In this document: positions 40,035 to 59,019 of the stretch, in pieces
How the letters are laid out: the number at the start of each line of letters is the position of its first letter
Position numbering within the stretch: the first letter of the stretch is position 1
Source: Lachnospiraceae bacterium
Lineage (GTDB): Bacteria > Bacillota > Clostridia > Lachnospirales > Lachnospiraceae
Length of the DNA: 64,000 nucleotides
Assembly (NCBI GenBank): GCA_017399685.1
Contig: JAFQBM010000035.1
Span: 2,174 to 66,173, forward strand
Reading direction: 5' to 3'
The notes under the pieces: generated by a model
What the model was told of the DNA's origin: nothing
Database searches by the model: none
Seen by the model: the letters and a program-made list of their open reading frames with translations, nothing else
Program-made: the position numbers and the translations under genes

Positions 40035-40091
40035 ATGCGATACAAACACTAAACAAATAAATTTAAGTTTCGAGAGAAAGGAGAAAAAGTT

Positions 40092-40271: not shown

Positions 40272-40301
40272 AAGAGATACAGAGGGAAAGGAGCTGATGT
40301 T

Positions 40302-41378: not shown

Positions 41379-41381
41379 TGG

Positions 41382-41702
41382 ATGGATAAGAATTTAGACT
41401 GTAAAGGACGTTGGAGAAATAAGACGGTAGCGTTTCGTGTATCAGAGGAAGAAGGAAAGCTGATTGATAATTGCGTAGCGTTATCCGGTCTTACGAAACA
41501 GGATTATATCGTCAGACGGTTGCAATGCCGGGATGTGGTGGTGCAGGGGAATCCAAGAGTTTACAAAGCACTTCGCAATCAGATGGCTGATATTTATGAG
41601 GAATTGAAACGGTTGGAGAAATGCAGTGCAGAAAATGAAGAACTGCTCTACACAATACAACTGATTACAGAAATAATGAATGGACTAAAGGAGAAAGATT
41701 GA
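41382..41702 (+). CDS. ribbon-helix-helix protein (MobC-like)
   Basis: KTVAFRVSEEEGKLIDNCVALSGLTKQDYIVRRL resembles RHH relaxosome accessory proteins. The family assignment is tentative. Confidence 0.4.
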   Translation: MDKNLDCKGRWRNKTVAFRVSEEEGKLIDNCVALSGLTKQDYIVRRLQCRDVVVQGNPRVYKALRNQMADIYEELKRLEKCSAENEELLYTIQLITEIMNGLKEKD

Positions 41703-42856
41703 TGGCAGAAAATAAAAAAGCGACTGCTCCGGTTTCATCAGTTGGCGCAGATGGGAAGCAGTCGTTATGTAATAAACACAAGGAAATTATAGCAGATTTG
41801 CCCTCGCAGGGCAATCTGCAAGCCACAAATAATCGTGGTTTTTGTGCAGAAATTCAGACAGATAAACAGGATAGGATGGATAGATTGAAAACAGTTTCCA
41901 TGACAGAACTTTATGATACCGTTTATCCGCCAAAAATCCCAATTGTAGATGGTCTGATATACGCAGGTACTTATCTTTTTGTAGGTGCGCCTAAAGTAGG
42001 AAAGTCTTTCTTTATGGCACAGCTTGGCTATCATGTGAGCATGGGGCTGGATTTGTGGGATTATCCGGTGCGAAAGGGTACAGTGTTGTATCTGGCACTG
42101 GAGGATGATTATGCAAGATTACAGAAACGATTATCAAAAATGTTTGGCATGGAAAGCAGTGAAAACTTTCATTTTGCCACACAGTCCAAAAACTTGAATG
42201 AGGGATTGGAAGAACAGCTAAACCAGTTTGTCAAAGAGCATACAGACGCAAGGCTGATTATCATTGATACGTTGCAGAAAGTAAGGGAAGTTAGCGGAGA
42301 TAAATTCAGTTATGCAAGTGACTACGAGATTGTGACAAAGCTGAAAGAATTTAGTGATGTTCATGGTATTTGTCTTTTGGTAGTACACCATACAAGAAAG
42401 ATGGAGTCCTCAGACAGTTTTGATATGATTTCCGGTACAAACGGATTGTTAGGAGCAGCAGACGGAGCCTTTGTTATGCAGAAAGAAAAGAGAACGGACA
42501 ACAAGGCAGTTTTAGAGGTTGCAGGACGTGACCAGCAAGACCAAAGGCTATTGCTCAATTTTGACAGAGAGCAATGTGTTTGGAAGCTGACTAAAGCAGA
42601 AACGGAACTTTGGAAAGAACCGGCTGATCCGGTGCTGGAAGCTGTTGCAAAGGTGGTATCAGAAGAACAGCCACAGTGGAGTGGAACCGCTTCGGAATTG
42701 TTACAGCTTTTGCCGGAGATGGATATACAGCCAAATGTGTTGACAAGGAAACTGAACATAGGAGCAGAGAAACTGTTTATAGATTATGGTATTTGTTATG
42801 AAAGCAGCAGAGGTCATAGTGGGCGCATGGTAAAACTGGAGCTTGTGAAAGCGTAA
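41699..42856 (+). CDS. RepA-like P-loop ATPase (AAA_25-type)
   Basis: Walker A GAPKVGKS, Walker B LIIIDTL and LVVHHTRK. This resembles RecA-fold replicative/primase-associated ATPases of integrative elements. Confidence 0.65.
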   Translation: MMAENKKATAPVSSVGADGKQSLCNKHKEIIADLPSQGNLQATNNRGFCAEIQTDKQDRMDRLKTVSMTELYDTVYPPKIPIVDGLIYAGTYLFVGAPKVGKSFFMAQLGYHVSMGLDLWDYPVRKGTVLYLALEDDYARLQKRLSKMFGMESSENFHFATQSKNLNEGLEEQLNQFVKEHTDARLIIIDTLQKVREVSGDKFSYASDYEIVTKLKEFSDVHGICLLVVHHTRKMESSDSFDMISGTNGLLGAADGAFVMQKEKRTDNKAVLEVAGRDQQDQRLLLNFDREQCVWKLTKAETELWKEPADPVLEAVAKVVSEEQPQWSGTASELLQLLPEMDIQPNVLTRKLNIGAEKLFIDYGICYESSRGHSGRMVKLELVKA

Positions 42857-42858
42857 GC

Positions 42859-42941
42859 GTGACGATATGTGACGGTTGTGACGGTATTTTATATAACGGT
42901 GTCGGTATAGAAAATATCGTCACTATCGTCACGACCGTCAC
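42859..42941. repeat. Iteron-like array: 3 x GTGACG, an AT-rich centre, then 3 x CGTCAC
   Basis: GTGACG occurs at 42859, 42869 and 42878. CGTCAC occurs at 42918, 42927 and 42936. The array lies in the gap after the RepA-like gene. Confidence 0.7.
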
Positions 42942-42946
42942 GTGGA

Positions 42947-43201
42947 TTGATGGAAAGGATTGATAAAATGAAAAATATACAGATTTCAGAGCGGTTATTT
43001 TTTGCACTTTTGAAATATCATTTGTTGGAAGCAGACGAAGTGTTGCCAGAGATAAAGAAAGGTTTGGAAGAAAAACTGGAAGCAATGGTAAGACGGGAAC
43101 TTTATACAAAATATAAGACTGCACCAACAGAAGAAGAACGTGAAAAAGCAAGGCAGGAGTATTTGGAAAAGGTGGGAATGCATCGGGACTTTCGATGGTA
43201 A
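42947..43201 (+). CDS. hypothetical protein
   Basis: 84-aa charged helical ORF. The start is uncertain (42950 or 42968 are possible). Confidence 0.4.
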   Translation: MMERIDKMKNIQISERLFFALLKYHLLEADEVLPEIKKGLEEKLEAMVRRELYTKYKTAPTEEEREKARQEYLEKVGMHRDFRW

Positions 43202-43349
43202 ATTTTTTCTTCGTTGTGTATAACGAGAGCGTGGCACGCTCTTGTAAATATGGTTAAGGAGAAATGCGGTGCGATGATACAGTGTACGATTACAGATATT
43301 TAAGCAAAGTGTTTTGTTATTTTGAAAAACGAGAAAGAAGGTGCGTTTT

Positions 43350-43571
43350 ATGACAGAAGGAAGATTAGGATACAATCCGGCAAATGACAGATATGGATTG
43401 TTGGTATCGGATTTATGGGTGGATAACGGATTTCATTGTGGTGAATGTTTAGAAGTTTTTGTAGATGGAAAGTGGATAAGTACCAGAATGGAAATGTCAG
43501 CAGAAAGAAAATGGTATCTGGTGGACACACCTTACTATGGAAATCTGGAATACGTGAAAGCTCGTATTTGA
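43350..43571 (+). CDS. DUF5348-like small protein
   Basis: MTEGRLGYNPANDRYGL...FHCGECLEVFVDGKW resembles the DUF5348 family seen on clostridial mobile elements. This is from memory. Confidence 0.45.
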   Translation: MTEGRLGYNPANDRYGLLVSDLWVDNGFHCGECLEVFVDGKWISTRMEMSAERKWYLVDTPYYGNLEYVKARI

Positions 43572-43802
43572 ATTAAAGTGATGGCTTGTTGCTTTAAGGC
43601 AGAATGATAAAGAACGCATAGGTAAATGCGGTAGCAAGCCCCCGGCAGGGCGCAAAACCTGACTTGTCAGGTTGCATTTTTGATACCGCAGGTGTCAAAA
43701 GTGCTTTTGCGTTACTTTCGGCGAAAGTAACAAAGCCTGTGTGCCTGTCGGCACAAAATAGGACGGATAAAAAAGAGAAAACGAAAGAGAGGTGTCAGCC
43801 TA

Positions 43803-44432
43803 TTGGAGAGAACGATTAGCGGCATGATGGGGAAGGCCAATAGTGAAGCAAGGTGGAGTAATGCACGATTAACAGAGGAAAATAAGCTGTTACAAACCGA
43901 AATAAATGATTTAGCCGGGGAAAAGGCAAAACTGCAATCCGACAATAGGGAGTTGGAGGAGCAACAGCAGAAGCTTCAGGCAGAAATAGAAGCTATGGCA
44001 GGCTCTAAAGTGAAATTGGAACGAAATGTAAGAGCTTATGATGAGGAAGAACAATGGAGGTTGCCGGAACCGGGAGCATTTACAAGCGCAAAGTCTTATC
44101 GGGAAAATAGTGCAAAGCCACTGGTAACAAGGCTGAAAGAACTTGTAAAGAGCCTGACAATTAAATGTGTTAATCTTATGGAACAGGTGAAAAGGTTGAA
44201 AGAGCAGGTAACACAGCAGACTTCGGATATTGAGTGGTACAAAGGAAAACTAAGAGAACAGGCTGGTGTTGTGGAACAGTTGCAGGAAAAAGTAGCCGAT
44301 TTGGAGCGTGTAAAGCGTTATGCCGGGGCTGAAAAGGTGCAGAGTATGATTGACAGCGTGAAAGAGGTTGAAAGGCTGGAAAACGAGCAGAAACGGTTAC
44401 AAAGAAACTATAACAGAGGAATGAGCAGATAG
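43803..44432 (+). CDS. hypothetical coiled-coil protein
   Basis: 209-aa Q/E/K-rich coiled coil with a TTG start. No relaxase motifs are present. Confidence 0.45.
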   Translation: MERTISGMMGKANSEARWSNARLTEENKLLQTEINDLAGEKAKLQSDNRELEEQQQKLQAEIEAMAGSKVKLERNVRAYDEEEQWRLPEPGAFTSAKSYRENSAKPLVTRLKELVKSLTIKCVNLMEQVKRLKEQVTQQTSDIEWYKGKLREQAGVVEQLQEKVADLERVKRYAGAEKVQSMIDSVKEVERLENEQKRLQRNYNRGMSR

Positions 44433-44445
44433 GAGATGGATTGAT

Positions 44446-44844
44446 ATGATGGATAATGAAAAGGTGTTGGAGAAACATATCATTGGAGAAAATGGAATAA
44501 GCTACACACTTGGAGAGGATGGTTTATACTATCCGGATTTGAAATTGCTGGAGGGAACACATTATGAGATAGGAAAGTATGGATTAATGCGGTGGGAGTA
44601 TTTGAAAAACTACCGCAGAGGGGAGTATATTAAGTTGCTGATGGAAGGAAAACTAAATGAACATCTGCATGAGGTTGATGAAGAATGTCATGAGAGAGTG
44701 GAGCTTATTATGGAGCAGATGAAAGTCGGGGCAGGTATTACGGAAGAATTAAAAGCTACTGACCAGATGAAGTGGGTAGGGCTTATGAATAACGTGAAAA
44801 GTGCTGCGGAGGAGATTGTGTTGAGAGAAATAGTGTACATTTGA
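44446..44844 (+). CDS. TnpV-like transposon-associated protein
   Basis: GENGISYTLGEDGLYYPDL ... GKYG..R..YLK pattern resembles TnpV of clostridial mobilisable transposons. This is from memory. Confidence 0.55.
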   Translation: MMDNEKVLEKHIIGENGISYTLGEDGLYYPDLKLLEGTHYEIGKYGLMRWEYLKNYRRGEYIKLLMEGKLNEHLHEVDEECHERVELIMEQMKVGAGITEELKATDQMKWVGLMNNVKSAAEEIVLREIVYI

Positions 44845-44862
44845 TTATATATACTTAAAATA

Positions 44863-44896
44863 GCGGGCAGTTCGTTGCGAACTGCTCTGTTTTATT
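44863..44896 (+). terminator. Rho-independent terminator at the backbone/cargo boundary
   Basis: GCAGTTCG-TTG-CGAACTGC followed by TCTGTTTTATTT. Confidence 0.65.
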
Positions 44897-45040
44897 TGCG
44901 AAATGATGTGAAAACAAAAGAAAATAAAACTTCTGATAATAAATTATGAGAACTCATAATTAGTTCTGGAAAAACATATTGCATAATATAAGGAATTGTG
45001 ATATGATAACAGAAAGTATGTTCGAAAGATGGAGGCATAT

Positions 45041-45250: not shown

Positions 45251-45265
45251 TTTGGAGTGTTTGTT

Positions 45266-45718
45266 ATGGACAGGTTGACAAAAGAACAACGCCATAAAAA
45301 TATGAGTAACATAAAAAATAAGGATACAGGTATTGAAGTAAAGCTGAGAAAAGCACTTTGGGAAAAAGGTTACCGGTATCGTAAAAATTTTAATGCATTA
45401 CCTGGAAAACCGGATATCGTATTAACAAAATATAAAATAGCAATTTTTTGTGATAGTGAGTTTTTTCATGGAAAAGATTGGGATGATTTGAAGGCACAAC
45501 TTGAACGTGGTAAAAATGCAGATTTTTGGATTAAGAAAATATCAAGAAACCGAGAAAGAGATGAAGAAATAAATAAGCAATTAATGTTTATGGGATGGAC
45601 AGTCATAAGGTTTTGGGGAAAAGATATAAAGAAAGATGTTGAAGAATGTGTCAAAGTTGTGGAAGAAACCATATTTGAATTGACTATAGCTATCAATGAA
45701 GAAGATATTTTAGACTAA
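45266..45718 (+). CDS. vsr: very-short-patch repair endonuclease
   Basis: The Vsr motifs are visible: LPGKPDIVL, IFCDSEFFHG, and the GW.VIRFW C-terminal region. Confidence 0.85.
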   Translation: MDRLTKEQRHKNMSNIKNKDTGIEVKLRKALWEKGYRYRKNFNALPGKPDIVLTKYKIAIFCDSEFFHGKDWDDLKAQLERGKNADFWIKKISRNRERDEEINKQLMFMGWTVIRFWGKDIKKDVEECVKVVEETIFELTIAINEEDILD

Positions 45719-45734
45719 AGGAGACGAACTGACA

Positions 45735-46739
45735 ATGTATACATCAATAGATTTGTTTGCCGGAATAGGTGGAATTAGAAAAGGGTTTGAAAATGCTTTT
45801 GGAAAAGATATTTCAACGGTGTTTGTGAGCGAGTGGGACGAACACGCACAAAAAACATATAGAGCCAATTATGTAGATAATTTTGAAATAGCAGGGGACA
45901 TAACTAAGATTGACGAAAAAGAAATCCCTGCATTTGATATTTGTTTAGCAGGATTTCCATGTCAGGCTTTTTCAATGGCAGGTAAAAGAATGGGATTTGA
46001 TGATGATTATAAAGGGATGTGTAGAGGTACATTATTTCAAGATGTAGTACGAGTTTGCGAATATCATAAACCAAGCGTTATTTTTTGTGAAAATGTAAAA
46101 GGATTGACAATCCATGATAGAGGAAGAACCTTTAAAGTTATTAAACGTGCATTTGAGCAGATAGGCTATACCGTTTATGATAAAGTTTTAAATAGTAAGG
46201 ATTTTGGTGTGCCACAGAATAGAGAACGTATTTATATTGTTGCTTTTCGCAATGATATAGACAGTACAAGTTTTAAGTTTCCGGTAGGAAACAATTCAGA
46301 TACAAAGATTAAAGATATAATGGAAGAAAATGTTGTAAGTGTAAAGTACTATCTTTCAACAACTTATTTAGAAACTCTGGAGCGACACAAGGAAAGGCAC
46401 AAAGCCAGAGGAAATGGTTTTGGCTATGAAATACGCGATATAAATGGTCAAGCGGGAGCTATTGTATGTGGAGGAATGGGGAGAGAAAGAAATCTGATTG
46501 TGGATAAGCGATTGAAGAATTTCACCCCTGTTACGCATATAAAAGGTGAGGTTAACAGGTTGGGAATAAGGAAAATGACACCAAGAGAGTGGGCGAGATT
46601 GCAGGGATTTCCGGATAGCTTTAAATTGGAACTTGCAGATACGCATTTATATAAACAGTTTGGTAACAGTGTAACGGTTAATGTTATTGAAGCAATTGCA
46701 AAAGAGATAAGGAGGATACTTGAAAATGGCAAAAAATGA
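45735..46739 (+). CDS. dcm: DNA (cytosine-5)-methyltransferase
   Basis: Motif I DLFAGIGG, motif IV GFPCQAFS, motif VI ENVKGL, motif VIII QNRERIY and motif X GNSVTV. Confidence 0.9.
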   Translation: MYTSIDLFAGIGGIRKGFENAFGKDISTVFVSEWDEHAQKTYRANYVDNFEIAGDITKIDEKEIPAFDICLAGFPCQAFSMAGKRMGFDDDYKGMCRGTLFQDVVRVCEYHKPSVIFCENVKGLTIHDRGRTFKVIKRAFEQIGYTVYDKVLNSKDFGVPQNRERIYIVAFRNDIDSTSFKFPVGNNSDTKIKDIMEENVVSVKYYLSTTYLETLERHKERHKARGNGFGYEIRDINGQAGAIVCGGMGRERNLIVDKRLKNFTPVTHIKGEVNRLGIRKMTPREWARLQGFPDSFKLELADTHLYKQFGNSVTVNVIEAIAKEIRRILENGKK

Positions 46740-47808
46740 TGGAAGAATGTCAGGAAATAAAGGCGAATGGTCGGAATTATATGCATTTATGAAATTATTA
46801 AGTCAGGGAAGGGTATATGCAGCAACTGAGAAGGTAGAAAAAATAGATGATGTTTTTTATCCGATTCTTAAGATTATGCGTGAAGAACAAAAAGGACAGA
46901 TTATTGATTATGTAATTACTGAAGATAATATTGATATCGAAATCGAGTCAAGAACGATTATGTCTGTTTCAAGAAAAGAATTCGATGATAATGCAAATTT
47001 TTTGTTACAGGAAATTGCTACTCATAGTGGAAGTTTTGAATTGGAAGAAGTTGCCAAATTTGCAAATGGAATTAAGGTAACAAAGATAAAAGCACCGTCT
47101 TCTGATACAACGGATATTTCTATGCAGATACAGGATATACATACAAATTATATTCGTAATGTTGGTTTTTCAATAAAATCAGAAGTGGGTAATGCTCCTA
47201 CTTTACTCAATGCAGGGCAGACTACGAATTTTATCTATAAGGTTACCGGAATTACAGCGGAACAGGCACAGGAAATTAATGCAATAGATACCTCAACTAA
47301 GATTAAAGACAGAATAAAAGCAATCAAAGAACTGGGCGGTACTATTAGTTATGTTGATATGAATCATCAGGGATTTAAACGTAACCTGATAATGGTGGAT
47401 AGCAGTATGCCGCAAATTATTGGCAATATGCTTTTGTATTATTTTGAAGAAGATATTAAAGAATGTGATAAATTAGTTGAGCTTGCAGGACAGAGAGATC
47501 CGCTTGGATATGGGGACGCTATGATGTATGAATATAAATTTAAAAAGTTCCTTTGTTCATGCGCATTGGGAATGAAGCCTGCAAAGAAATGGGATGGTTT
47601 GGATGAAGCCAATGGCGGTTATATAATTGTAAAAGCTGATGGTGAGATACTGGCATATCATATTTATAACAGAAATTTCTTTGAACAGTATTTGTTGGAT
47701 AATACTATTTTGGAAAGGGCTTCTACAAGCAGACATGAGTATATGCGTTTATATGAGGAAGAGGGAGAAATGTTTATTAAATTTAATTTGCAGGTAAGGT
47801 TTAGATAA
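46720..47808 (+). CDS. type II restriction endonuclease, HpaII-like
   Basis: The N-terminal NKGEWSELYAFMKLL motif recalls the HpaII REase family (from memory). It overlaps the methyltransferase stop. TTG start with AAGGAGG upstream. Confidence 0.55.
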   Translation: MKMAKNDGRMSGNKGEWSELYAFMKLLSQGRVYAATEKVEKIDDVFYPILKIMREEQKGQIIDYVITEDNIDIEIESRTIMSVSRKEFDDNANFLLQEIATHSGSFELEEVAKFANGIKVTKIKAPSSDTTDISMQIQDIHTNYIRNVGFSIKSEVGNAPTLLNAGQTTNFIYKVTGITAEQAQEINAIDTSTKIKDRIKAIKELGGTISYVDMNHQGFKRNLIMVDSSMPQIIGNMLLYYFEEDIKECDKLVELAGQRDPLGYGDAMMYEYKFKKFLCSCALGMKPAKKWDGLDEANGGYIIVKADGEILAYHIYNRNFFEQYLLDNTILERASTSRHEYMRLYEEEGEMFIKFNLQVRFR

Positions 47809-47855: not shown

Positions 47856-48830
47856 GTGTTAGAGGTGATGAACGTGTCTATAGCTGAAGAATATAGGAAA
47901 ATATACAATGTGTATGTATGCAAGGAATTGGAACAAGAAATTGCAATATACGAGGCGGAAAAAGGGATAAATAATTATCAACCATTAAGTCATAATTGCG
48001 CACAAAAATGTGCTGGTAACTGTAATCATCAATGCCATAAAAGTCTTGGAAAATTAATGAGAAAAAATATTGTATTTTATTGTTATGGCGAAGACGAGAT
48101 AGTAACCAATTTTCAAAATGGACTTTTTTCTGATTTGGAAAAAGCTACGAAAGCAGCCTATAGATTGCGTTTACCCAAACGCCAACCAAACATGGATGGA
48201 TTACCAAGTGAGGTTTTATTGGATGCAATTATTCAATCATTATTTCCTGATGCATATAAAATGGCTGTTAGGACAATATTTAGGCAAAATGATAACAATG
48301 AAATAAAGGGCTATGATTTAACTTATTTTACTAATATGCATGGAACAATTACATTATGGCTGGGACAAGCTAAATTGGGGAGTAAACAATATTGTAAAAA
48401 TGGTATTTTAGAAGATTTAGAAAAAAAGTATACAGATTTGTATATGGCTAATCAAATTTATTTTATGGCAGATAAACCTACTGGACTTACAGAAGAAGGA
48501 AAACAAATTGCAAATTTATTGAATAGGTTAAATATGTTGAATGCATATGAAGATGATGATAATCGAGCTGAGCAACTCATGCAATTTTTAAAGACACAAA
48601 ATATAGATATATGTATACCATGTCTTTTGGCATATAACAAGGCAGATGTGTATGCGGATGTTAGAAAACTTGAAAATAAAATGAAATCTGAGATGGCATG
48701 GGCAAAAGGAATTTTTGAAAAATATTTTAAATTTGCAGGAATTGAGCCAAAATTGATTTTTATAATATTTCCAATAGATGATATTGAAGCCTTACGAGGA
48801 GATGAAGGATTTTATGAAGGATTATGTTAA
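47856..48830 (+). CDS. DUF1837-like (HamA-like) putative PD-(D/E)xK effector
   Basis: The pattern GLPSEVLLDAII ... KGYDLTYF ... LWLGQAKLG fits the E...D...(E/Q)xK layout. It overlaps the downstream SF2 helicase gene. The start is uncertain. Confidence 0.5.
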   Translation: MLEVMNVSIAEEYRKIYNVYVCKELEQEIAIYEAEKGINNYQPLSHNCAQKCAGNCNHQCHKSLGKLMRKNIVFYCYGEDEIVTNFQNGLFSDLEKATKAAYRLRLPKRQPNMDGLPSEVLLDAIIQSLFPDAYKMAVRTIFRQNDNNEIKGYDLTYFTNMHGTITLWLGQAKLGSKQYCKNGILEDLEKKYTDLYMANQIYFMADKPTGLTEEGKQIANLLNRLNMLNAYEDDDNRAEQLMQFLKTQNIDICIPCLLAYNKADVYADVRKLENKMKSEMAWAKGIFEKYFKFAGIEPKLIFIIFPIDDIEALRGDEGFYEGLC

Positions 48831-51216
48831 TTTGCTTTTGGATGCGATAAACAATTATAATGATGAAGATATGAGCAGTAAAAATAAATTGCGTGATTTA
48901 GTATGTATAATTTCTGAAAACGATAATATAAAAAACGATCCGCTTATTAGGGAATTATTATATACTGCTTCTCATAAGATGCGCATTTTTGGTTATAATG
49001 TGCAGAACGGTTTTTATAAGCAGGATATTCTAATTGAACAAAATTCATCCGAATTAATGTATCTTCGCAATCAAAGTATTATTAGCAGGTATCGGTCTAA
49101 AGTAAGAAGTAATAATATACTTGATAAAAGTCAACAAAATATTATTGATTTTTATCAATCTTTGGATAAAAAGCGAATGCTGGTTAGCGCACCGACTTCA
49201 TATGGAAAAACTTTTATTATGCGTGAGATATTATATTTGAATCAAGAAAGATATAATAATGTATTACTTGTGTTTCCGACAGTAGCATTATTACGAGAAA
49301 ATGCATTGAATATGGAAGAATTAAACCGTGAAAAGAAAATGGGATATAATGTTATCAAATCCATTGATGGCGAAATAAATAGTCAAGAAAGAAATATTTT
49401 CGTATTTACGCCTGAAAGAGCAATGCAGCTATTAGCAAACTACCCGGATATTAAGATAGATTTCTTTTTTTATGATGAAATGTATAAAATTGACGAAGAT
49501 TACTGTAATGAAGAGACAGATGATAATGAGGAGCAAACAAGGAAAAATCCTTATACAGAACATACATTTTTAGACGAGGCGAGGGCAAAAACATTTCGCA
49601 TTTGTTTATACATTCTTTCGAAAAGGGTAGAAGATTATTATTTGGCTGGACCTAATTTAAAAAGAGATAAATTCGGAAAGGGAATGCAGAGATATATTGC
49701 AACAAATGACATAAAAATTAAAGAAATTGAATTTGAGCCTACAAAACGAATACAAGTAAAAGCATATAATAAGACAATTGATGAAGATTATACAGATTTG
49801 CCTTATTTAGAAAAACCAGAGTTGGCTAGTATGCACAGTAAAGTCAATGATAGAATTTGTGATGTGGTTGAGTATATTGAAAAAAAAGGATACGGAGCGA
49901 CAATGCTATATTGCACAACTCCTGCAAAAGCAAATGAATACGCAACTAAGTTGGCACAAAGACATCGGGAGAATGTAGTAACAAACAAAAGATTTTCCTT
50001 GTTTATTGAACATCTCAAAAGAAATTATAATATAGACGATTCTATTAATGAATGGAGTTTTGTGAATGTATTGGAGAAAGGTTTTGGAATGCATCATGGA
50101 AAAATGCCAAAATATATTCAAAAAGAGGTATTGGATTTGTTTAATGATGGTGTATTTAATTTGCTTTTTTGTACGTCAACAATTGTTGAGGGGGTTAACA
50201 CTAATGCAAAGAATATGGTTGTATTAAATCATAAAAAAGGTGGAAGTGATTTAACGGTTTTTGATTTTAAAAATATTATCGGAAGGGCTGGAAGATATTA
50301 TCATAATTTTGTTGGAAGATATTTTTTAGTTGATAAGGAATTGAAAAAATTTGAGCATACTGAAGATTTGGAACTTAATTTTATTACTTATGATGAACAA
50401 ATTTTAGATCCTATAGATATAGATAATTCTGAATATGATGATTTGACGTATGAGAATAAGAAACTTAAACAAAAGAGATTAGAGGAACAACGAGAATATA
50501 TATTAAAAGATGAAGTGTATGAAAAAAATAGACTGATTAAAAAAGAGTATCAGGAAATACTTTTAAAATTTTTGATAAATAATGATGAACTTTACAATAA
50601 GTTTTATAATTATACTACTTTCCCGGACATATTGGCACAGTTTACTACTTACCATGCTATGAGTACTGTACTTGACATATTTGAACAGTCAGGTCTGCTT
50701 GAGAAGATGATTGTTTCCAGATACAAGGCTATCAGTAATACATATTGTAGTGAGGGTTTTCGAGGTCTGTTGAAATATGAAATTGATAATGCCTGGAAAG
50801 AAAAATATGATAAGTATGGAAATAAAGTGAAAAAGAGCATAGATAGGGCATACATGGATGCATTTAAAACACAAAAGGAAATTATCGAACATAAGATACC
50901 CAAAATGTTGGCACTATTTGAAACTATTTTTTTATATGCGTCTTCAGTTAAAGGGAGAAAAATAAGTAAATTTTCGCTGTCAAAAGTTACACGTTTTTAT
51001 GAAACTGGTGTAAAAAGTTATTTTGGAGAGCAACTGGTTGAATTTGGATTTCCAGTTGATGCAATTAAAAGGATAGAAGATAGTAATGTGAAATTAGTGT
51101 CTATGGATGCGGATTCAAGTAAGAAGTATATACAGGAAAATTTGAATGATATTAGTAAGGTATTGGATATGTATGAAAAGGAATTATTAAATAGGGCTTT
51201 AAAATCTATTTTTTAG
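48814..51216 (+). CDS. SF2 (Ski2-like) DEAD/DEAH-box helicase, HamB-like
   Basis: Motif I APTSYGKT (GKT at 49204-49212), motif II YDEM (49471-49482), MHHGKM, TSTIVEGVN and GRAGR. The ORF is open from 48778; 48802 and 48814 are the possible ATG starts. Confidence 0.75.
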   Translation: MKDYVNLLLDAINNYNDEDMSSKNKLRDLVCIISENDNIKNDPLIRELLYTASHKMRIFGYNVQNGFYKQDILIEQNSSELMYLRNQSIISRYRSKVRSNNILDKSQQNIIDFYQSLDKKRMLVSAPTSYGKTFIMREILYLNQERYNNVLLVFPTVALLRENALNMEELNREKKMGYNVIKSIDGEINSQERNIFVFTPERAMQLLANYPDIKIDFFFYDEMYKIDEDYCNEETDDNEEQTRKNPYTEHTFLDEARAKTFRICLYILSKRVEDYYLAGPNLKRDKFGKGMQRYIATNDIKIKEIEFEPTKRIQVKAYNKTIDEDYTDLPYLEKPELASMHSKVNDRICDVVEYIEKKGYGATMLYCTTPAKANEYATKLAQRHRENVVTNKRFSLFIEHLKRNYNIDDSINEWSFVNVLEKGFGMHHGKMPKYIQKEVLDLFNDGVFNLLFCTSTIVEGVNTNAKNMVVLNHKKGGSDLTVFDFKNIIGRAGRYYHNFVGRYFLVDKELKKFEHTEDLELNFITYDEQILDPIDIDNSEYDDLTYENKKLKQKRLEEQREYILKDEVYEKNRLIKKEYQEILLKFLINNDELYNKFYNYTTFPDILAQFTTYHAMSTVLDIFEQSGLLEKMIVSRYKAISNTYCSEGFRGLLKYEIDNAWKEKYDKYGNKVKKSIDRAYMDAFKTQKEIIEHKIPKMLALFETIFLYASSVKGRKISKFSLSKVTRFYETGVKSYFGEQLVEFGFPVDAIKRIEDSNVKLVSMDADSSKKYIQENLNDISKVLDMYEKELLNRALKSIF

Positions 51217-51397
51217 CTGCTTCATATCAAAAAATATATGGTTACACATTTATGATAGTTAAGGTAGGGGCATTGTTACAATGCGTGCACTGTGTGTGAA
51301 CAATTTAAATATTTAAGCTATAAAAGAAAGTTGAAAACAGAAGAATATCTGAAGAAAATTTGAGTTATCTTCAAGGGTTTTAGAAAGAGAGGTACTT

Positions 51398-53623
51398 ATG
51401 GAAGAGTTAAAGATGAAATTAGAAAACTGTTTTGGTATTCAAAATATGCAACAAGATATTAATTTTTCAAAAAATAATGTAGGGGTAATATATGCACCGA
51501 ATGGAACAATGAAATCGTCGTTAGCTAAAACATTTGAATACATTAGAGCTGGCAAGGTGGTTGAAGAAAAAATATTTGGTGCTAATAGTTCTTATTCTAT
51601 TACGGATGAAAATGGTAAAGATATTTTACCGGAAAATATAATGGTCATTAATCCGTTTGACGAAAAGACATATGAAAATCAGGGGATGTTAATGGCAAAT
51701 GCAGAATTAAGAAAGAAATATTTATTAATTCATAAAGATATTGATGACAAGAAGGAAGCCTTATATGAGGAGTTGAAGTCACTATTGGGTTATTCGTCAA
51801 GAAGTTCTTTTAATGTTGAGAGTACAATGTTATTAGATTGGAAAAGTACTAAAAAAGAATTGTTTTTATGTTTGGAGAATATATCCAATGTGCTTCATGA
51901 TTCAGATATGAACTGTTGTTTGAAAGTGGATGAAATAGATTATAATACTTTATTCAATGATAAAGTATATTCTATGATTACTACTGGAAAAACGTCAGAG
52001 TTGATTGAAGAATATGAAAAGAAATATAACGAGCTAGTTGAAAAGTCTTTATATATGCAGAAGGGGATTATTGATCATAATAATTACACGAATATTAGTG
52101 ATTCATTGAATAATAATGGATTCTTTGGAGCAAATAACGAGATAAAGTTGAATGCAAAGGATGGAAGCACATCAATAATGATTAAATCACAAGTAGAATT
52201 AAATGATTTAATTAAGAATGAAAAAGAACAGGTTCTCAATACAAAAGAATTAAAAGAATTGTTTGAAAAAATAAATAAAGCAATTAGTAAAAATAAAGAT
52301 ACACAAGCATTTAATGCGTTTTTACAGCAGCATCCTGACATAGTATCTGAATACAAAGATATAGAAAAATTCAAGAAAAAGATATGGGTAAAGGTTTTTT
52401 TGGCTTCTGAAACAAAATTATCAGAACTATTAGCTGATTATAAAAAAGCTCAAGATGAACTTAAAGTATTGAGGAACAAAGCTAAGCAAGAAACGACAGA
52501 TTGGAATAAGGCATTGGATCTGTTTAAGGAAAGATTTTTTGTACCATTTACTATAGAAACCGCAAATCAGGAAGATGTTATTCTTAATATGGATATGCCA
52601 AGTTTTAAATATATATTTTCTGATGAGAGGGGAATTAAGGAAGTTGCAAAAGAAAATTTACTGGAAGTATTGAGTACTGGGGAGAAAAGGGCATATTATA
52701 TCCTGAATTTAATATTTCAGATTTTGGTAGCAAAAAATGAGGGGAAAGAAAAAATAGTGATTTTGGATGATATATCAGAGTCATTTGATTATAAAAATAA
52801 GCACGCAATTATTGAGTACATAAGTGATATATCAGGATTTGTTGATGCACAAGGGAATAAGCTATTTAAAGTACTATTGCTGACACATAACTTTGATTTT
52901 TATAGGACAGTTGCGTTGAGAATAACAACACGGGCAAATGCTTATATAGCTTTTACGGATAAAGGCGAGGTGAAGTTTGAAAAAGGTCAGTACACAAAAA
53001 ATATTTTTGGGCATTATAAAGAACTTCTTATTAAGGGAAATTGTGATAATATTATAATTGCAGCGATTCCGTTTGTTAGAAACTTAATAGAATACACGGA
53101 AGGTGATAGTGATGCAGATTATTTGCGTTTAACAAGTATATTACACTATAAAACAGACACAAAGACAATCACATTAAAAGATGTTCAAGACATATTTAAC
53201 AGGCATTGGTGTAAGAATGGAAATTTTAGTTTTGCAGTGGGGCGAGAAACTGAATTGATATATGATATCATTATGGCTGAAGCGAATAAAATCACAAATA
53301 TAGAAAAATTAGAGATAGAAAGCAAACTGATTTTGTCAATGGCAATAAGATTAAAATCTGATGAATTTATGACACAGCAGATTTTGACAAAATTACCAAA
53401 TGGTTTAGATGTTATCAATGATATATATAGTAAGAAGAATCAAAGTGCGTGGTTGATTAAGGAATATAAGAAAAATATAAACGATGACGTGATGGGAACA
53501 TTGGAACAGGTTGCTATGCTTACCCCTGAAAATATACACTTAAATTCTTTTATGTTTGAACCTATTTTAGATATGTCCTTGGTACATTTATATGATTTAT
53601 ATCAGAAGGTAAAAGCATTTTAG
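51398..53623 (+). CDS. ABC/Rad50-like ATPase with a helical insert and a PrrC/RloC-like C-terminal domain
   Basis: Walker-A-like APNGTMKS (51494-51517), signature LSTGEK, Walker B IVILDD, H-loop LLTHN, then a C-terminal R561-x3-E565...H583 motif. Confidence 0.5.
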   Translation: MEELKMKLENCFGIQNMQQDINFSKNNVGVIYAPNGTMKSSLAKTFEYIRAGKVVEEKIFGANSSYSITDENGKDILPENIMVINPFDEKTYENQGMLMANAELRKKYLLIHKDIDDKKEALYEELKSLLGYSSRSSFNVESTMLLDWKSTKKELFLCLENISNVLHDSDMNCCLKVDEIDYNTLFNDKVYSMITTGKTSELIEEYEKKYNELVEKSLYMQKGIIDHNNYTNISDSLNNNGFFGANNEIKLNAKDGSTSIMIKSQVELNDLIKNEKEQVLNTKELKELFEKINKAISKNKDTQAFNAFLQQHPDIVSEYKDIEKFKKKIWVKVFLASETKLSELLADYKKAQDELKVLRNKAKQETTDWNKALDLFKERFFVPFTIETANQEDVILNMDMPSFKYIFSDERGIKEVAKENLLEVLSTGEKRAYYILNLIFQILVAKNEGKEKIVILDDISESFDYKNKHAIIEYISDISGFVDAQGNKLFKVLLLTHNFDFYRTVALRITTRANAYIAFTDKGEVKFEKGQYTKNIFGHYKELLIKGNCDNIIIAAIPFVRNLIEYTEGDSDADYLRLTSILHYKTDTKTITLKDVQDIFNRHWCKNGNFSFAVGRETELIYDIIMAEANKITNIEKLEIESKLILSMAIRLKSDEFMTQQILTKLPNGLDVINDIYSKKNQSAWLIKEYKKNINDDVMGTLEQVAMLTPENIHLNSFMFEPILDMSLVHLYDLYQKVKAF

Positions 53624-53832
53624 AAAAAGAAGTTATGTTTTAAAAATTTGCTGATTGATTTAATTACCTGTTATGCTATAATATTCTCATGGCAACACTT
53701 TGGCAACAGAAAATCAGTAAGCCAAAATAAATTATGCAAATGAAGTAAAATCTCGGCAGTTTTCAGATAAAACCTAAACAAAAAGATTTAAGTTTGAGCA
53801 ACAACTTGCCGAGTTTGAATAGTAGACATTTT

Positions 53833-53877
53833 GTTCCGAAATACTGAATTTATCGGTGTTTCGGAACTTTTTATTTT
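53833..53877 (+). terminator. Rho-independent terminator with no gene directly upstream (candidate displaced guaA terminator)
   Basis: GTTCCGAAA-17 nt-TTTCGGAAC followed by TTTTTATTTT. Confidence 0.6.
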
Positions 53878-54092
53878 CTCCGTGATGTTAATATGATGTT
53901 GCCAGAAGAAAGTGTTTACTTTTCCTACCCAAAATCGAGGCTAACTTGTAAAAGTAAATTCCGTATGAAAGAGTAAATTTCATCTGCGTATAAAAATTGC
54001 GAACGTAAAGTTCATATTGAGAAAAACGGTGATGTGTAATACAATGAGATATATTAGGGTTATTATGCTTATTTCTAGAAGGGGGATTAAAT

Positions 54093-54701
54093 ATGAGTAG
54101 ACGATTTTCATTACAAATTCTACTTCCTATAGAAGGCTATGAGGAAGATAAGATATACACATGCGAAGACATTGAGCTTAAAGTGGTGAATTCTAATCTG
54201 AAGCCGGATAATATATATTATAGACGTTTAAAGGAAAAATCTGTTTATACATCTTTTGATGATATTGCTGCATTTGCTTGCCAAAAATATTCGCTAGGAG
54301 AAATACATAACTTTTCTATGCATACCGATTATTTTGGTGCTCGCGAGATTGAATATGCAGGCAATAGATACATTGTTACAGAAGATGAAGTAAAACAGCT
54401 TGAAAGAGAACATATTACAGAATCTGTATATTGTAATGAATTCAAATACTGTAGTTTGAGTTGGTTTTATACCAGTATTGGGGACGAGCTTCTTCCGGAA
54501 GATATGGCTGTCGTGGATGATGAGCTGATACAAAAAGCTTCATCTTTAGTGGGATATGAGTCAGAGAAAGATTTTGCGAGCAAGTTGGCTGATGTTATAG
54601 AGGAGGAAGCCGATTGGGAAGACAAGTTTATAGCATCGCTCATATTGGCAAAGGAAATTGCTGGACGTGTGAATGGAAGAGCGGTTTTGTGGTATGACTG
54701 A
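54093..54701 (+). CDS. hypothetical protein
   Basis: 202-aa ORF with GGGGGA upstream. I recognise no family. Confidence 0.4.
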   Translation: MSRRFSLQILLPIEGYEEDKIYTCEDIELKVVNSNLKPDNIYYRRLKEKSVYTSFDDIAAFACQKYSLGEIHNFSMHTDYFGAREIEYAGNRYIVTEDEVKQLEREHITESVYCNEFKYCSLSWFYTSIGDELLPEDMAVVDDELIQKASSLVGYESEKDFASKLADVIEEEADWEDKFIASLILAKEIAGRVNGRAVLWYD

Positions 54702-54722: not shown

Positions 54723-56111
54723 ATGAAGGAAAAAGAGCATCAATCTATAGAGTGGAAAGAGTCTTGGCAGGATGAGTATTTAAAATGGATTTGTGGATAT
54801 GCTAATGCTTACGGTGGAACATTATATATAGGTACTGATGACGATGGTAATGTGGTGAGGATTGACAATGCAAGAGAGCTTTTGGAACGAATCCCTAATA
54901 AAATTACTGATATGATGGGTATCATCGCGGATGTAAATTTATTGTATAAAGACGACCTTGAGTATTTGCAGATAGTTGTTGATAAATATCCGTCTTTAAT
55001 AAGTTTCCGTGGAAAATATTACTATCGTTCAGGAAGTACCATGCGTGAGATTACCGGAAAGGAATTGGAAAGAGCTTTGTTAAAGACGCAGGGAAGAACG
55101 TGGGATGGCGTACCATTGCCTAAAATATCAGTGGATGATTTAAAACAGGATGCAATACAACTGTTTAAGGAGAAGGCTGTAAAGAGAGGTAGACTTACGC
55201 AAGAGGAAGCTGGCGTTGAAGATTCTATTTTGATGGACAACCTGCATCTTATTGATGAAGAGGGATATTTGATAAGGGCAGCCATGTTGGCTTTTTATAA
55301 AGATCCTGAAAAGTGGGTAACCGGTTCCTATATTAAAATCGGTTACTTTGGCAAGTCTGATGCAGATTTGGTATATCAGGATGAAGTGCATGGTCCGTTG
55401 ATTGAGCAGGTAGATAAGACAGTTGATTTAGTATATACAAAATATATGAAAGCGCTAATTGCTTATGAGGGAATTCAGAGAGTGGAGCAGTTTATGTTCC
55501 ATAAGGATGCTTTTCGTGAAATTCTTTTGAACGCAATTGTTCATAAGGATTATAGTAGTTGTAATCCTATTCAGATCAGCGTTTATGAGGATAAGATATA
55601 CATTTGGAACGACGGTGAAATGCCACCTAACCTGGATTCTACGGACAAGCTGTTTATGAAGCATTCGTCTAAGCCATATAATCCGAAATTGGCAAATGTA
55701 TTCTTAAAAAGCGGTATGATTGAAGCCTGGGGAAGAGGTTTTGAAAAGATTAAAGAAGCATGTGGATTGTACGATGGTCCGTTGCCGGAATATGAGATAA
55801 ATGAGTCTGGTATTATGGTGTTGTGTAAGGCTTGTGATAGATATTTGGAGTTGCTGTCAGGGCAAGAAAAAGTCGATTCGCTCATTTCAGATGAGCGAAT
55901 TATGAGCGAAAAAATGAGCGAATTAAAGAAAGAACCAATTGTTAAAATAGTAAATTACTTAAAAGATAATGAAGAAATTACTACAGCAAAAGGTGTTGAA
56001 ATCACAGGGAAATCAGTAGCTCAGGTGAGAAGATATTTAAAAACATTATGTGATTTAGGAATCATAAAGAGTACACGCACTACTAAGGGTAATGTGTATG
56101 TGAAGGTATAA
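54723..56111 (+). CDS. AlbA_2 (Schlafen-like) / HATPase_c_4-type putative DNA-binding protein
   Basis: N-terminal IEWKESW...GGTLYIGTDDDGNV, a central ILLNAIVHKDY region and a C-terminal winged-helix-like tail. Confidence 0.6.
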   Translation: MKEKEHQSIEWKESWQDEYLKWICGYANAYGGTLYIGTDDDGNVVRIDNARELLERIPNKITDMMGIIADVNLLYKDDLEYLQIVVDKYPSLISFRGKYYYRSGSTMREITGKELERALLKTQGRTWDGVPLPKISVDDLKQDAIQLFKEKAVKRGRLTQEEAGVEDSILMDNLHLIDEEGYLIRAAMLAFYKDPEKWVTGSYIKIGYFGKSDADLVYQDEVHGPLIEQVDKTVDLVYTKYMKALIAYEGIQRVEQFMFHKDAFREILLNAIVHKDYSSCNPIQISVYEDKIYIWNDGEMPPNLDSTDKLFMKHSSKPYNPKLANVFLKSGMIEAWGRGFEKIKEACGLYDGPLPEYEINESGIMVLCKACDRYLELLSGQEKVDSLISDERIMSEKMSELKKEPIVKIVNYLKDNEEITTAKGVEITGKSVAQVRRYLKTLCDLGIIKSTRTTKGNVYVKV

Positions 56112-56147: not shown

Positions 56148-56528
56148 ATAGTATTTATTCCAAAGTACAGAAAGAAAAAAGTATATGGTCAGGTAAAGGA
56201 GGATGTACGAGAAATTATCAGTACATTATGTAAATGCAAAGATGTAGAAATAATAGCAGGTGCAGCATGTGTAGACCATGTACATCTTAGTGTTGCAATA
56301 CCACCCAAAATGAGTGTTTCGAGTTTTATGGGGTATTTGAAAGGTAAAAGTACACTTATGATATATGATAGGCATCCGGAGTTACAAAGCAAGTGGAATA
56401 AAGCATTTTGGGCGAGAGGATATTATGTAGAAACAATATGTAATATAACAGAAGAAGCAGTTAAAAAGTATATTAAAGAGCAGGCAGAAGAGTCACAGAA
56501 AGAAGATACAAGAGGTACCGCTTTTTAG
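56148..56528 (+). pseudogene. tnpA: IS200/IS605-family Y1 transposase (tnpA), 5'-truncated
   Basis: My own translation from 56148 is IVFIPKYRKKKVYGQ...VDHVHLSVAIPPK...GYLKGKS...FWARGYYV. A stop lies at 56145-56147 and there is no in-frame start for the missing N-terminus. Three hairpins follow at 56555-56625. Confidence 0.7.
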
Positions 56529-56696
56529 CGGACCAGTGATAGTGCTTGCGATATCGCCCTTTTGGGCGAGCAGTAAGAAAGCCCTTTTTAGGGCTAATAA
56601 CAAACCACCAGTTGAACTGGTGGTTGCTGACTTGAAAAGATAGATATAAAGAAAAGTGCTGAGCTTTGGTGGGATAAACATTACAAGAGCACTATA

Positions 56697-56951: not shown

Positions 56952-57458
56952 GTGAGTGATTGGAAGAATACAGAATGGCGCAAGAGTCTGAAAAATAAGC
57001 CTTTAAAATATTGGATTCGTGATGAAATAGAGGAAATAATTAAAGAGGAGCATATAGATAGAAAAAGATTTGGAGAATATTCCAAGCTTAAGTATGAAGA
57101 GGTAGTCAAACGTTTTTACTATACCTATATGAATTATGAGAAGTATCCACAAATTGAATTGGCATATTGTTGGTTACATTTTCGAGATTCCTTGTATAAG
57201 GGCGACAATATTTGTGTAGGTGGAGATTGGAAATATTTTTTGCATCAGTTAGGAGAATTAATCGAAGAAAAAGAAGATACAAAGCTTTATATGATTTTAT
57301 CACAAGGCTGGGTGTATGAAGGATTTATAAAAGAAATATTGGATGTGTTAGGAGAAACAGACGGTTTATTAGAAGACTTTTATATTGTTTCACCGGAGTT
57401 TGACTGGATGATTGCTTACTGTGATGATGGAGAAAGTGTAGCTCTGTATAGAATATAG
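56952..57458 (+). CDS. hypothetical cytoplasmic protein
   Basis: 168 aa. GTG start with TAGGAGC upstream. No TM segment or signal peptide. Confidence 0.4.
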   Translation: MSDWKNTEWRKSLKNKPLKYWIRDEIEEIIKEEHIDRKRFGEYSKLKYEEVVKRFYYTYMNYEKYPQIELAYCWLHFRDSLYKGDNICVGGDWKYFLHQLGELIEEKEDTKLYMILSQGWVYEGFIKEILDVLGETDGLLEDFYIVSPEFDWMIAYCDDGESVALYRI

Positions 57459-58599: not shown

Positions 58600-59019
58600 A
58601 TGAAGATTCTTGTAGATACAAATGTTGTCATTGATGCACTTACGGGAAGAGAACCATGGAATGTAAGTGTTGAAAAGATATTTCTTCTTGGAGCAAATCA
58701 TATCGTGGATATGTACATTACTGCAAGCTCTGCGACAGATATATACTATATCATCAGAAAGCATTTGCATGATACACAGGCTGCAAAACAGGTTATGGGG
58801 AAATTGTATTCCCTTATGGGAATATTGGAAGTGACTGGAACTGACTGTGTGGAAGCCATTGCGTCACCGATTACAGATTATGAGGATGCAGTGGTGGAAA
58901 AGGTAGCATCAAGAAAAGATATGGATTATATTGTAACCAGAAACGTTAAAGATTATCAAAATGGTAGTATGAAAGCTATTTTACCAGATGATTTTATTGT
59001 GGTGATGGAAGAAGAATAA
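58600..59019 (+). CDS. vapC: PIN-domain toxin (VapC-like)
   Basis: MKILVDTNVVIDAL N-terminus with conserved acidic residues. 139 aa. Confidence 0.8.
   Translation: MKILVDTNVVIDALTGREPWNVSVEKIFLLGANHIVDMYITASSATDIYYIIRKHLHDTQAAKQVMGKLYSLMGILEVTGTDCVEAIASPITDYEDAVVEKVASRKDMDYIVTRNVKDYQNGSMKAILPDDFIVVMEEE

Follow-up and report, generated by a model that had tools for sequence, protein, structure and literature searches.

PDC-S46, a widespread single-gene defence candidate with a methionine P-loop and PrrC as its nearest detectable known family

PrrC and RloC are fusions of an ATP-binding cassette (ABC) ATPase with an anticodon nuclease (ACNase) whose Arg-x3-Glu...His triad has been validated by mutagenesis; the Glu and His are 31 residues apart in PrrC and 36-52 apart in RloC, where a Ser often precedes the His (PMC2610378). 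The ATPase of PrrC has been described as switch-like rather than motor-like (PMC2610378; PMC3710099). The gene considered here lies in a 64,000-nucleotide (nt) stretch of DNA from a Lachnospiraceae bacterium (contig JAFQBM010000035.1), the whole of which is referred to as the window. It occupies positions 51398..53623 of the forward strand, and translation confirmed a complete open reading frame (ORF) with an ATG start, 741 amino acids (aa) and a stop codon. As judged from sequence profiles, PrrC is the nearest detectable known family. Homology with PrrC is well supported over the ATPase and as far as the initial helices of the effector domain, and equivalence of the whole nuclease domain to that of PrrC is plausible.

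An earlier, sequence-only reading had put the protein forward as a candidate novel single-gene defence factor. The family is, however, already in PADLOC under the name PDC-S46. The hidden Markov model (HMM) of that family (PDLC05023) matched residues 1-740 over profile positions 1-717 of 719 (E 3e-233, 774.6 bits); the window protein shows no difference from PDC-S46 and is simply a member. The next-best PADLOC models were LmuB (E 2e-4) and mad8. Pfam gave only a sub-threshold match to SMC_N (E 0.002), and NCBIfam a sub-threshold match to RecF over the signature/Walker B region. A sequence search of the PDB returned nothing with the single sequence and only noise with the family profile, including a marginal match to the D-loop of Smc4. 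PDC-S46 is a putative phage-defence system, put forward as a single-gene candidate because it is embedded in known defence systems or associated with them (Payne et al., bioRxiv 10.1101/2024.01.29.577857). The name is absent from the papers and supplements searched, and the PADLOC entry carries no description or mechanism. The Prokaryotic Genome Annotation Pipeline (PGAP) gives one Rhizobium homologue the label 'phage infection protein', and other homologues appear as 'hypothetical' or 'AAA family ATPase'. The Rhizobium protein (RefSeq WP_254962493.1; locus L009, 6001-8178, on a Rhizobium anhuiense plasmid) bears its label, yet no NCBIfam model matches the family. The PADLOC listing is already known, and an ABC ATPase with a fused effector is a familiar architecture. 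What appears to be new is the link to PrrC with its aligned catalytic residues, the PrrC-like embedding of the gene in some type I operons, the family-wide Met in the P-loop, and a confidently predicted effector domain that has no structural relative.

Relationship to PrrC and RloC

The EcoPrrC sequence was taken from Supplementary Fig. 12 of PMC11555353, and the homologues collected all carried PF13166. The PrrC profile designated A5 comprised 15 sequences, including ten diverged plasmid homologues of PrrC (30-56% identity), every one of which lies beside hsdS, between hsdS and hsdR or hsdM. Using hhalign, the PDC-S46 family was matched to the single EcoPrrC sequence with a probability of 69.9% (E 4.1e-5), to a narrow PrrC profile (A4) with 75% (E 2.5e-5) and to A5 with 88.3% (E 2.9e-6, 136 columns). 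The A5 alignment sets residues 454-600 on PrrC 212-354 and brings R561 and E565 onto the catalytic R320 and E324. The N-lobe alone matched PrrC with a probability of 95.5% (E 1.4e-8). With HMMER and a search space equal in size to the PDB (Z = 177,635), the family HMM scored up to 25.9 bits against PrrC homologues (E 3.2e-5); no PDB entry exceeded 12.6 bits with this HMM, although the PDB covers every major ABC clade. Reciprocally, the PrrC HMM found family members at E 3e-4, in alignments reaching residues 586-608.

The motifs of the earlier reading were confirmed by translation at the residues it had given: A33-P-N-G-T-M38-K-S, LSTGEK at 425-430, IVILDD at 453-458, LLTHN at 494-498, VR561-NLI-E565, and H583. 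Walker A reads LIYAFNGTGKTRLS in PrrC and VIYAPNGTMKSSLA in this protein. The corresponding pairs are LSKGEE and LSTGEK for the signature, FIDDPVSSLD and ILDDISESFD for Walker B and the D-loop, ITTHSPLFYNV and LLTHNFDFYRT for the H-loop, and LLR320NLYE324KT and FVR561NLIE565YT for the catalytic helix. The two families therefore have in common a Walker A context of I-Y-A-x-N-G-T-x-K-[TS], an LSxGE signature, a Walker B ending in Asp-Asp rather than Asp-Glu and followed by an S-x-[LF]-D D-loop, and an H-loop of the pattern T-H-x-x-x-F-[YF]. In both, the N-terminal part is an ABC NTPase and the C-terminal part fused to it an effector, the latter as a prediction in the present case. Both also have the same order of secondary structure (helix, two strands, helix, RNLxE helix), and the H-loop His and the Arg are separated by 64 residues here compared with 69 in PrrC.

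Modelled alone, the C-terminal domain (residues 531-741) gave a confident AlphaFold prediction, with a predicted local distance difference test score (pLDDT) of 90.7 and a predicted template-modelling score (pTM) of 0.89. Its best local match to PrrC is the catalytic region, with a score of 18.5-20.5; the maximum over 40 column shuffles was 13.9, and the reversed profile scored 15.0. Searched with Foldseek against BFVD, the domain returned nothing below E 1. Only scattered chance matches were obtained when Pfam was run on 40 C-terminal domains, the domain profile gave noise against PDB sequences, and no internal duplication of the domain was detected by hhalign.

A number of observations weigh against a nuclease of the PrrC/RloC type. 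The profile HMM searches that returned PDC-S46 over its full length were silent for Pfam AAA_13 (PF13166) and for the PADLOC PrrC and RloC models, none of which matched at E <= 1. By itself the C-terminal domain has no significant hhalign match to PrrC (probability <1-12%), and the roughly 140 residues from 605 to 741, many of them invariant and polar, have no PrrC equivalent by hhalign. Against the PDB, the best Foldseek match of the domain had E 1.2 (probability 0.09); Cas13d was at E 3.5 (probability 0.02) and the HEPN four-helix fold was undetected. The 17 residues between E565 and H583 are fewer than the 31 of PrrC, and hhalign does not pair H583 with H356; they are also outside the 36-52 of RloC, and a Leu precedes the His. 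E565 reaches a conservation of 60-90% or more according to the alignment used, which is below R561 and H583. R349 of PrrC, the Arg of its HEPN motif (Rx6H), has no conserved equivalent in the family. The window copy contains R577-x5-H583, yet R577 varies (R/C/K/T/L) among close homologues. Lastly, a Met ahead of the P-loop Lys might block normal nucleotide binding. More generally, no conserved Arg was found 4-6 residues ahead of a conserved His (HEPN Rx4-6H) in the family alignments.

The earlier proposal of kinship with PrrC and RloC thus stands in part. The profile and HMM matches to PrrC are significant, and they are colinear from Walker B through the R-N-L-x-E helix; membership proper is not supported, given the silent AAA_13 and PADLOC models, the missing zinc hook, the short Glu-His interval and the unconserved HEPN Arg. 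The same applies to the C-terminal Arg-Glu-His motif, of which R561 and E565 align with R320 and E324, and which lies in a domain that alone has no significant match to PrrC or to HEPN structures.

These last findings also suit a different explanation, in which the protein is a defence ATPase-effector fusion whose C-terminal domain has DNA or some other non-RNA molecule as its substrate, as a new-fold nuclease or an NTP/NAD-type hydrolase, and in which the PrrC match reflects only the shared ABC head and a linker helix. Apart from the lack of significant similarity to PrrC or HEPN structures, the additional invariant residues E655, E711, H714, N716, E721 and D725 would suit a metal-dependent site, and DNases are the partners of many defence ABC ATPases (OLD, Gabija, Wadjet, HEC-04). 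However, the R-N-L-x-E helix is exactly where the best local PrrC match falls, with a score above those of the shuffled and reversed profiles; the H-loop and the Arg are spaced alike, the secondary-structure order matches, and Foldseek matched no known DNase fold either. We regard a DNA or other non-RNA substrate as unlikely, while giving it serious weight.

A second Arg-x3-Glu pair, R651/E655, is present in the C-terminal domain. It is better conserved than E565, and an invariant H714 lies 58 residues further on. Placing R651-x3-E655...H714 on PrrC as an alternative triad had no hhalign support, and no counterpart of K643, R651 and E655 was found in PrrC. As an RloC-type triad, R651-x3-E655-x58-H714 is out of the spacing range and is likewise without hhalign support.

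The differences from PrrC are considerable. The protein is twice the size, with 741 aa compared with ~396, and has a helical insert of 280 aa, where PrrC has neither such an insert nor a coiled coil, and some 140 extra C-terminal residues with invariant positions of their own. It has Met for the second Gly of the P-loop, and the PrrC box, which in PrrC comes after Walker A, has no convincing conserved counterpart. Some family members occupy the hsdS-X-hsdR position as PrrC does, but most copies, that of the window included, are outside type I restriction-modification (R-M) loci.

RloC was compared by way of the PADLOC RloC model, AAA_13 and the published description (PMC2610378), not by an RloC sequence. 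On that basis the resemblance lies in the size (~740-800 aa), in the splitting of the ABC head by a helical insert, in a C-terminal domain bearing Arg-x3-Glu...His, and in a linkage to R-M systems that is occasional only (PMC2610378). Unlike RloC, the present protein has no CxxC zinc hook, and its insert is modelled as a short stalk with a helical cap in place of a long antiparallel coiled coil.

The methionine P-loop and the predicted structure

A word-indexed search gave 2,336 relatives, of which the best 120 were inspected. These are 68-85% identical to the window protein, have the same start and essentially its length (~742 aa), and belong to gut Firmicutes (Clostridiales, Eubacterium CAG:161, Dialister invisus); YAPNGTMKSS is invariant among them. 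An exhaustive profile search over 1.84 billion cluster representatives (clusters at 50% identity) matched 2,041 clusters at E <= 1e-3 and 808 at E <= 1e-30, nearly all of the matches being full length (710-760 aa). Conservation was assessed on an alignment of 144 relatives with 31-59% identity to the query. The family Walker A is Y-A-x-N-G-x-M-K-[TS]-S, with the Lys (K39) in 144/144 and the Met in 143/144, and it does not match the canonical [AG]xxxxGK[ST] because Met takes the Gly position.

The earlier reading held that both P-loop glycines were replaced. This is right for M38, which is anomalous, and wrong for Ala33, which fits the classical [AG]xxxxGK[ST] and is found in PrrC also (IYAFNGTGKT). 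A canonical P-loop does not normally tolerate the replacement of Gly by Met at its GK[ST] position, and from this one could argue for a decaying or inactive allele in which the P-loop has been destroyed by mutation. That explanation is rejected because M38 is conserved in 143/144 relatives at 31-59% identity; homologues have kept the Met rather than a canonical P-loop. Furthermore, the ORF is full length, all the other ATPase motifs are invariant, and an identical protein in the same island is present on 7 independent metagenomic contigs. The probability of decay is, in our estimation, negligible. Rather than compromised, as had been suggested, the P-loop is by the alignment a family-wide trait, and M38 a selected feature.

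The other motifs of the head are equally well kept. Invariant or nearly so are S426, G428 and E429 of the signature; D457, D458, S462, F463, D464, Y465, N467 and K468 of the Walker B/D-loop; and T496, H497, N498, D500, F501 and R503 of the H-loop. Asp458 of Walker B stands where the usual catalytic Glu would be, and no Q-loop Gln is conserved in the family alignment. In the C-terminal domain, R561 and H583 are 100% conserved and N562 98%, and they are joined in this class by K643, R651, E655, Q682, H714, N716, F718, E721, P722 and D725.

The full-length AlphaFold run used a 136-sequence alignment and gave a model with a mean pLDDT of 88.3 and a pTM of 0.75. The model consists of an N-lobe (1-100), an insert (~101-380), a C-lobe (381-530) and an all-alpha C-terminal domain (536-741). 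The N-lobe contains a beta-hairpin, strand 28-32, the P-loop and helix 39-50, and the C-lobe holds the signature helix, the Walker B strand and the H-loop strand. The first (102-129) and last (338-379) helices of the insert are long and resemble a short stalk, between which there is a helical cap with a small beta-hairpin. The insert is helical and lies between the P-loop and the signature, as had been stated; its size is ~280 aa rather than the ~380 given, and it is a short stalk with a cap, not the long antiparallel coiled coil for which a structural check had been proposed. It had also been called K/E-rich, and enrichment is present but mild (24.6% vs 20% for the whole protein). The lack of a zinc hook was borne out, as there is no CxxC in the entire protein and Cys occurs only at 11, 158, 173, 174, 549 and 605.

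Foldseek against the PDB matched the heads of Rad50, SMC/condensin/cohesin, SbcC, LmuB, JetC, retron and Septu PtuA, and AriA, at E 1.9e-6 to 1e-3. Together with the model, these matches agree with the Rad50/SMC-like split head that had been proposed. The protein therefore shares its head fold and the insertion between the lobes with Rad50, SbcC, SMC and the defence ABC ATPases (LmuB, JetC, PtuA, AriA, GajA/OLD, HEC-04), the D-loop pattern LDxxN with SMC, and the logic of an ATPase sensor joined to an effector with the defence proteins. It differs from all of them in that sequence similarity is marginal (<=12.6 bits to the PDB; LmuB E 2e-4) and no partner gene is conserved. Its effector is fused, and is not a TOPRIM, HNH, Cap4-like or recognised nuclease fold.

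Distribution, neighbourhoods and the window island

More than 559 relatives were found among about 186,000 species-representative genomes (one genome per species). The hosts belong to most bacterial phyla, to lineages of the candidate phyla radiation (CPR) and to the archaea (Methanohalophilus, Woesearchaeota). The gene is present on 27 plasmids and also on integrase or recombinase elements. Five archaeal and CPR members (L054, L070, L027, L073, L086) are full length and 35-38% identical to the window protein; that of Methanohalophilus euhalobius adjoins a complete type I R-M system, and others come from a Woesearchaeota metagenome-assembled genome and CPR Saccharibacteria.

Neighbours were surveyed at 79 diverse loci by all-vs-all clustering. 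There was no conserved partner gene, since no neighbour family occurred in more than 8/79 loci and positions varied. The commonest neighbours were HsdM (8 loci), HsdR (8), C5-methyltransferase (7) and HsdS (6), followed by type III Mod and nSTAND3 (5 each) and type III Res (4). In about 18% of the loci the gene is in or beside a type I or type III R-M operon. It is embedded in type I R-M at about four and adjacent to it at about five more. At L060 the arrangement hsdM...hsdS-X-hsdR, which includes a 4-nt overlap and a gap of 3 nt, puts the gene in the position of PrrC, and the gene is likewise embedded in type I operons at L072, L034 and L087. At another five loci (L045, L055, L065, L067, L068) it abuts type III Mod/Res genes on the same strand. 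The gene is thus a stand-alone one whose linkage to R-M is recurrent but non-obligatory, and in this it is closer to RloC than to PrrC. The family is large and is spread by horizontal transfer.

This distribution bears on two further explanations. The first is that the protein is a housekeeping ABC ATPase of DNA repair or chromosome maintenance (Rad50/SbcC/RecF/RecN-like) without a role in immunity, to which the Rad50 and SMC heads at the top of the Foldseek matches and the weak SMC_N and RecF profile matches might point. However, the family occurs sporadically, at ~35% identity, over Firmicutes, Proteobacteria, Bacteroidota, CPR and archaea, with copies on plasmids and integrase/recombinase elements; no Mre11/SbcD-type partner was present among the clustered neighbours of the 79 loci, and the neighbourhoods are variable, with R-M and defence genes predominating. 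A housekeeping role is consequently very improbable. The second is that the C-terminal domain is a non-catalytic sensor or adaptor, the whole protein being an SMC/Rad50-like nucleic-acid sensor that modulates other systems, for example R-M, in trans. A novel fold with no enzyme match, the frequent position beside type I/III R-M operons on the same strand, and the invariant loop 709-725, whose predicted flexibility could be that of an interaction surface, are all compatible with this. Set against it, the absence of any neighbour family from more than ~10% of the 79 loci excludes an obligate linked partner, invariant charged and His residues are packed as densely as would rather be expected in an active site, and PADLOC models PDC-S46 as a single-gene system. 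A sensor or adaptor seems to us improbable, though less so than a housekeeping enzyme.

Several neighbourhoods deserve separate description. A Eubacterium homologue follows an AlbA_2 gene and precedes genes for a helicase, HIRAN and type I R-M, and a close homologue on another contig adjoins HEPN_Swt1. At two loci (L010, 3697-8737, and L011) a homologue of 41% identity is beside an 840-aa HD-CE/HATPase_c_3 (paraMORC-like) gene, and both genes are carried by a small element that also encodes a serine recombinase and a Rep protein.

In the window the gene sits in a guaA-adjacent integrative mobilisable element that is, by its gene content, rich in defence genes. The order begins with guaA (37569-39110), a helix-turn-helix gene, the gene for a tyrosine integrase (40302-41378), and those for NikA, an AAA_25 protein and TnpV. 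Next comes a cassette (45257-47808) of Vsr with M.HpaII-like and R.HpaII-like genes, and after it Hachiman HamA and HamB and the PDC-S46 gene. The latter is followed by a 202-aa ORF without a match, an AlbA_2/HATPase_c_4/winged helix-turn-helix protein, DUF6756 and a Phd/PIN_3 pair. The Hachiman and type II R-M (Vsr/HpaII) neighbours named in the sequence-only reading are present upstream, and the gene follows them outside any type I R-M locus, as had been said. Its description as the terminal cargo gene is not supported, as accessory genes go on downstream. No direct repeat of the guaA 3' end (an att repeat) of >=14 nt that would define the right end of the island was found downstream of 45 kb.

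Islands with this gene recur at the 3' end of guaA, which is seen as their insertion point in the window (37569-45000), in four Dialister loci (L005-L008) and in L002 and L015. The order in the Dialister loci is guaA-Vsr-42 aa-PDC-S46, and in L002 and L015 guaA is upstream too. In the Dialister loci (7113-7541) an orphan Vsr only is found directly upstream of the homologue, compared with the full cassette of the window, which suggests loss of the cassette or its replacement at the same hotspot. In the window, hamA (47856-48830) and hamB (48778-51216) overlap by 53 nt as listed ORFs, and metagenome calls start hamB 12 codons later.

Directly downstream of the gene are the 202-aa ORF (54093-54701; no Pfam or PADLOC match) and the AlbA_2(Schlafen)/HATPase_c_4/winged helix-turn-helix gene (54723-56111). 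On Eubacterium CAG:161 contigs (L001-L004, 4889-7505) a 307-aa ORF and a 557-aa AlbA_2/HATPase_c_4 protein are directly upstream of the homologue. The pair may be a separate two-gene module travelling with PDC-S46 in gut Firmicutes, and it is not conserved family-wide; neither the 202-aa ORF nor the AlbA_2/HATPase_c_4 gene is a conserved partner, both having been ruled out by the clustering of neighbours. Further on, the accessory region contains a 66-aa fragment of a Y1 transposase (~56330-56530), the DUF6756 gene (56952-57458), a Phd/YefM-like antitoxin gene (from ~58380) and the PIN_3 toxin gene (58600-59019).

The features of the gene itself are collected in Table 1. The non-coding spacer of 470 nt on its 3' side (53624-54092) holds a strong hairpin (53833-53867) with a 15 bp stem. 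An Rfam scan of 39-64 kb found no RNA family, and so no sign of an associated non-coding RNA.

Table 1. Features of the PDC-S46 gene and its flanks, in window coordinates
Feature	Position	Strand	Basis or remark
Shine-Dalgarno-like GAGAGG	51387..51392	+	5 nt ahead of ATG; sequence reading
ORF, PADLOC PDC-S46 member	51398..53623	+	741 aa; full-length HMM match
ABC-ATPase N-lobe, residues 1-100	51398..51697	+	AlphaFold secondary structure; hhalign vs PrrC
Deviant Walker A, A33-P-N-G-T-M38-K-S40	51494..51517	+	M38 codon 51509-51511
All-helical insert, residues ~101-380	51698..52537	+	AlphaFold model; without CxxC
ABC-ATPase C-lobe, residues 381-530	52538..52987	+	AlphaFold, Foldseek; weak RecF and SMC_N matches
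ABC signature, L425-S-T-G-E429	52670..52684	+	S426, G428, E429 >=99% conserved
Walker B (IVILDD) and extended D-loop ISESFDYKNK	52754..52801	+	D458, F463, D464, Y465, N467, K468 invariant
H-loop, L-L-T-H497-N-F-D-F-Y-R503	52877..52906	+	H497, N498, D500, F501 invariant
C-terminal all-alpha domain, residues 531-741, predicted effector	52988..53620	+	AlphaFold pLDDT 90.7, pTM 0.89
R561-N-L-I-E565	53078..53092	+	Aligned to PrrC catalytic R320-N-L-Y-E324
H583, end of helix 573-582, candidate third catalytic residue	53144..53146	+	Invariant His
K643 ... R651-x3-E655, second conserved basic/acidic cluster, long helix 640-665	53324..53362	+	
Near-invariant loop T709-P-E-N-I-H714-L-N716-S-F-M-F-E721-P-I-L-D725	53522..53572	+	Low-confidence model, pLDDT ~60
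Terminator-like hairpin and T-run	53833..53877	+	210 nt past stop codon

Proposed function

The reading we prefer, which we consider evenly balanced between right and wrong, is that the protein is a defence factor of PrrC/RloC type, intact and self-contained, in which a nucleotide-controlled ABC switch governs a C-terminal toxic effector. The ABC signature and the D-loop act only across a head-to-head dimer. Because both of these trans-acting elements are invariant, the head is expected to have retained dimerisation around nucleotide, as a nucleotide sandwich. Three features, namely Met38, an Asp (458) where the catalytic Glu would be expected, and a Q-loop in which no Gln is conserved, suggest a slow or altered nucleotide chemistry, and the head would be a slow regulatory NTPase, a switch and not a motor. 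An infection cue would alter the state of the head and so free the C-terminal domain. Where the gene is linked to R-M the cue could be loss of the R-M partner, and where it is alone, as in the window, something sensed by the helical insert; both versions of the trigger are speculative. The C-terminal domain is predicted to be a metal-independent RNase with R561, E565 and H583 as its core. K643, R651, E655, H714, N716, E721 and D725 would shape the substrate site, which the flexible T-P-E-N-I-H-x-N-x-F-M-x-E-P-x-x-D loop would complete or gate. The outcome would be abortive infection brought about by damage to RNA, for which tRNA is the most plausible candidate, although the choice of tRNA as the target is speculative and is the least secure step in the scheme.

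A bolder version, which is possible but which we hold only tentatively, is that PDC-S46 represents a third, unrecognised branch of the PrrC/RloC ACNases, extending over bacteria and archaea. Its RNase core, of HEPN type, would have been rebuilt as a larger domain that lacks any solved structural relative, and its head turned into a sensor of the nucleotide pool or of a signal, gating a translation-disabling suicide that guards type I/III R-M systems or operates alone. The Met P-loop, the Asp in Walker B and the missing Q-loop Gln would on this account mark the conversion of a motor into a sensor, and a head that senses the nucleotide pool would, by analogy, parallel the use of GTP and dTTP by PrrC.

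The family is widespread (at least 2,041 clusters) and unnamed, and its effector has no Pfam domain. The link to PrrC provides a concrete mechanism and a set of residues of interest, namely M38, K39, D458, R561, E565, H583 and H714. Should the prediction fail, PDC-S46 would still be a widespread single-gene defence candidate with a structurally new effector domain. If it is true, the set of abortive-infection enzymes that target tRNA or other RNA, whether guarding R-M systems or standing alone, would grow, and a new effector fold would be added. The family would also then offer a natural case of a functional P-loop in which Met has replaced the 'invariant' Gly, and this would be relevant to the enzymology of P-loop NTPases.

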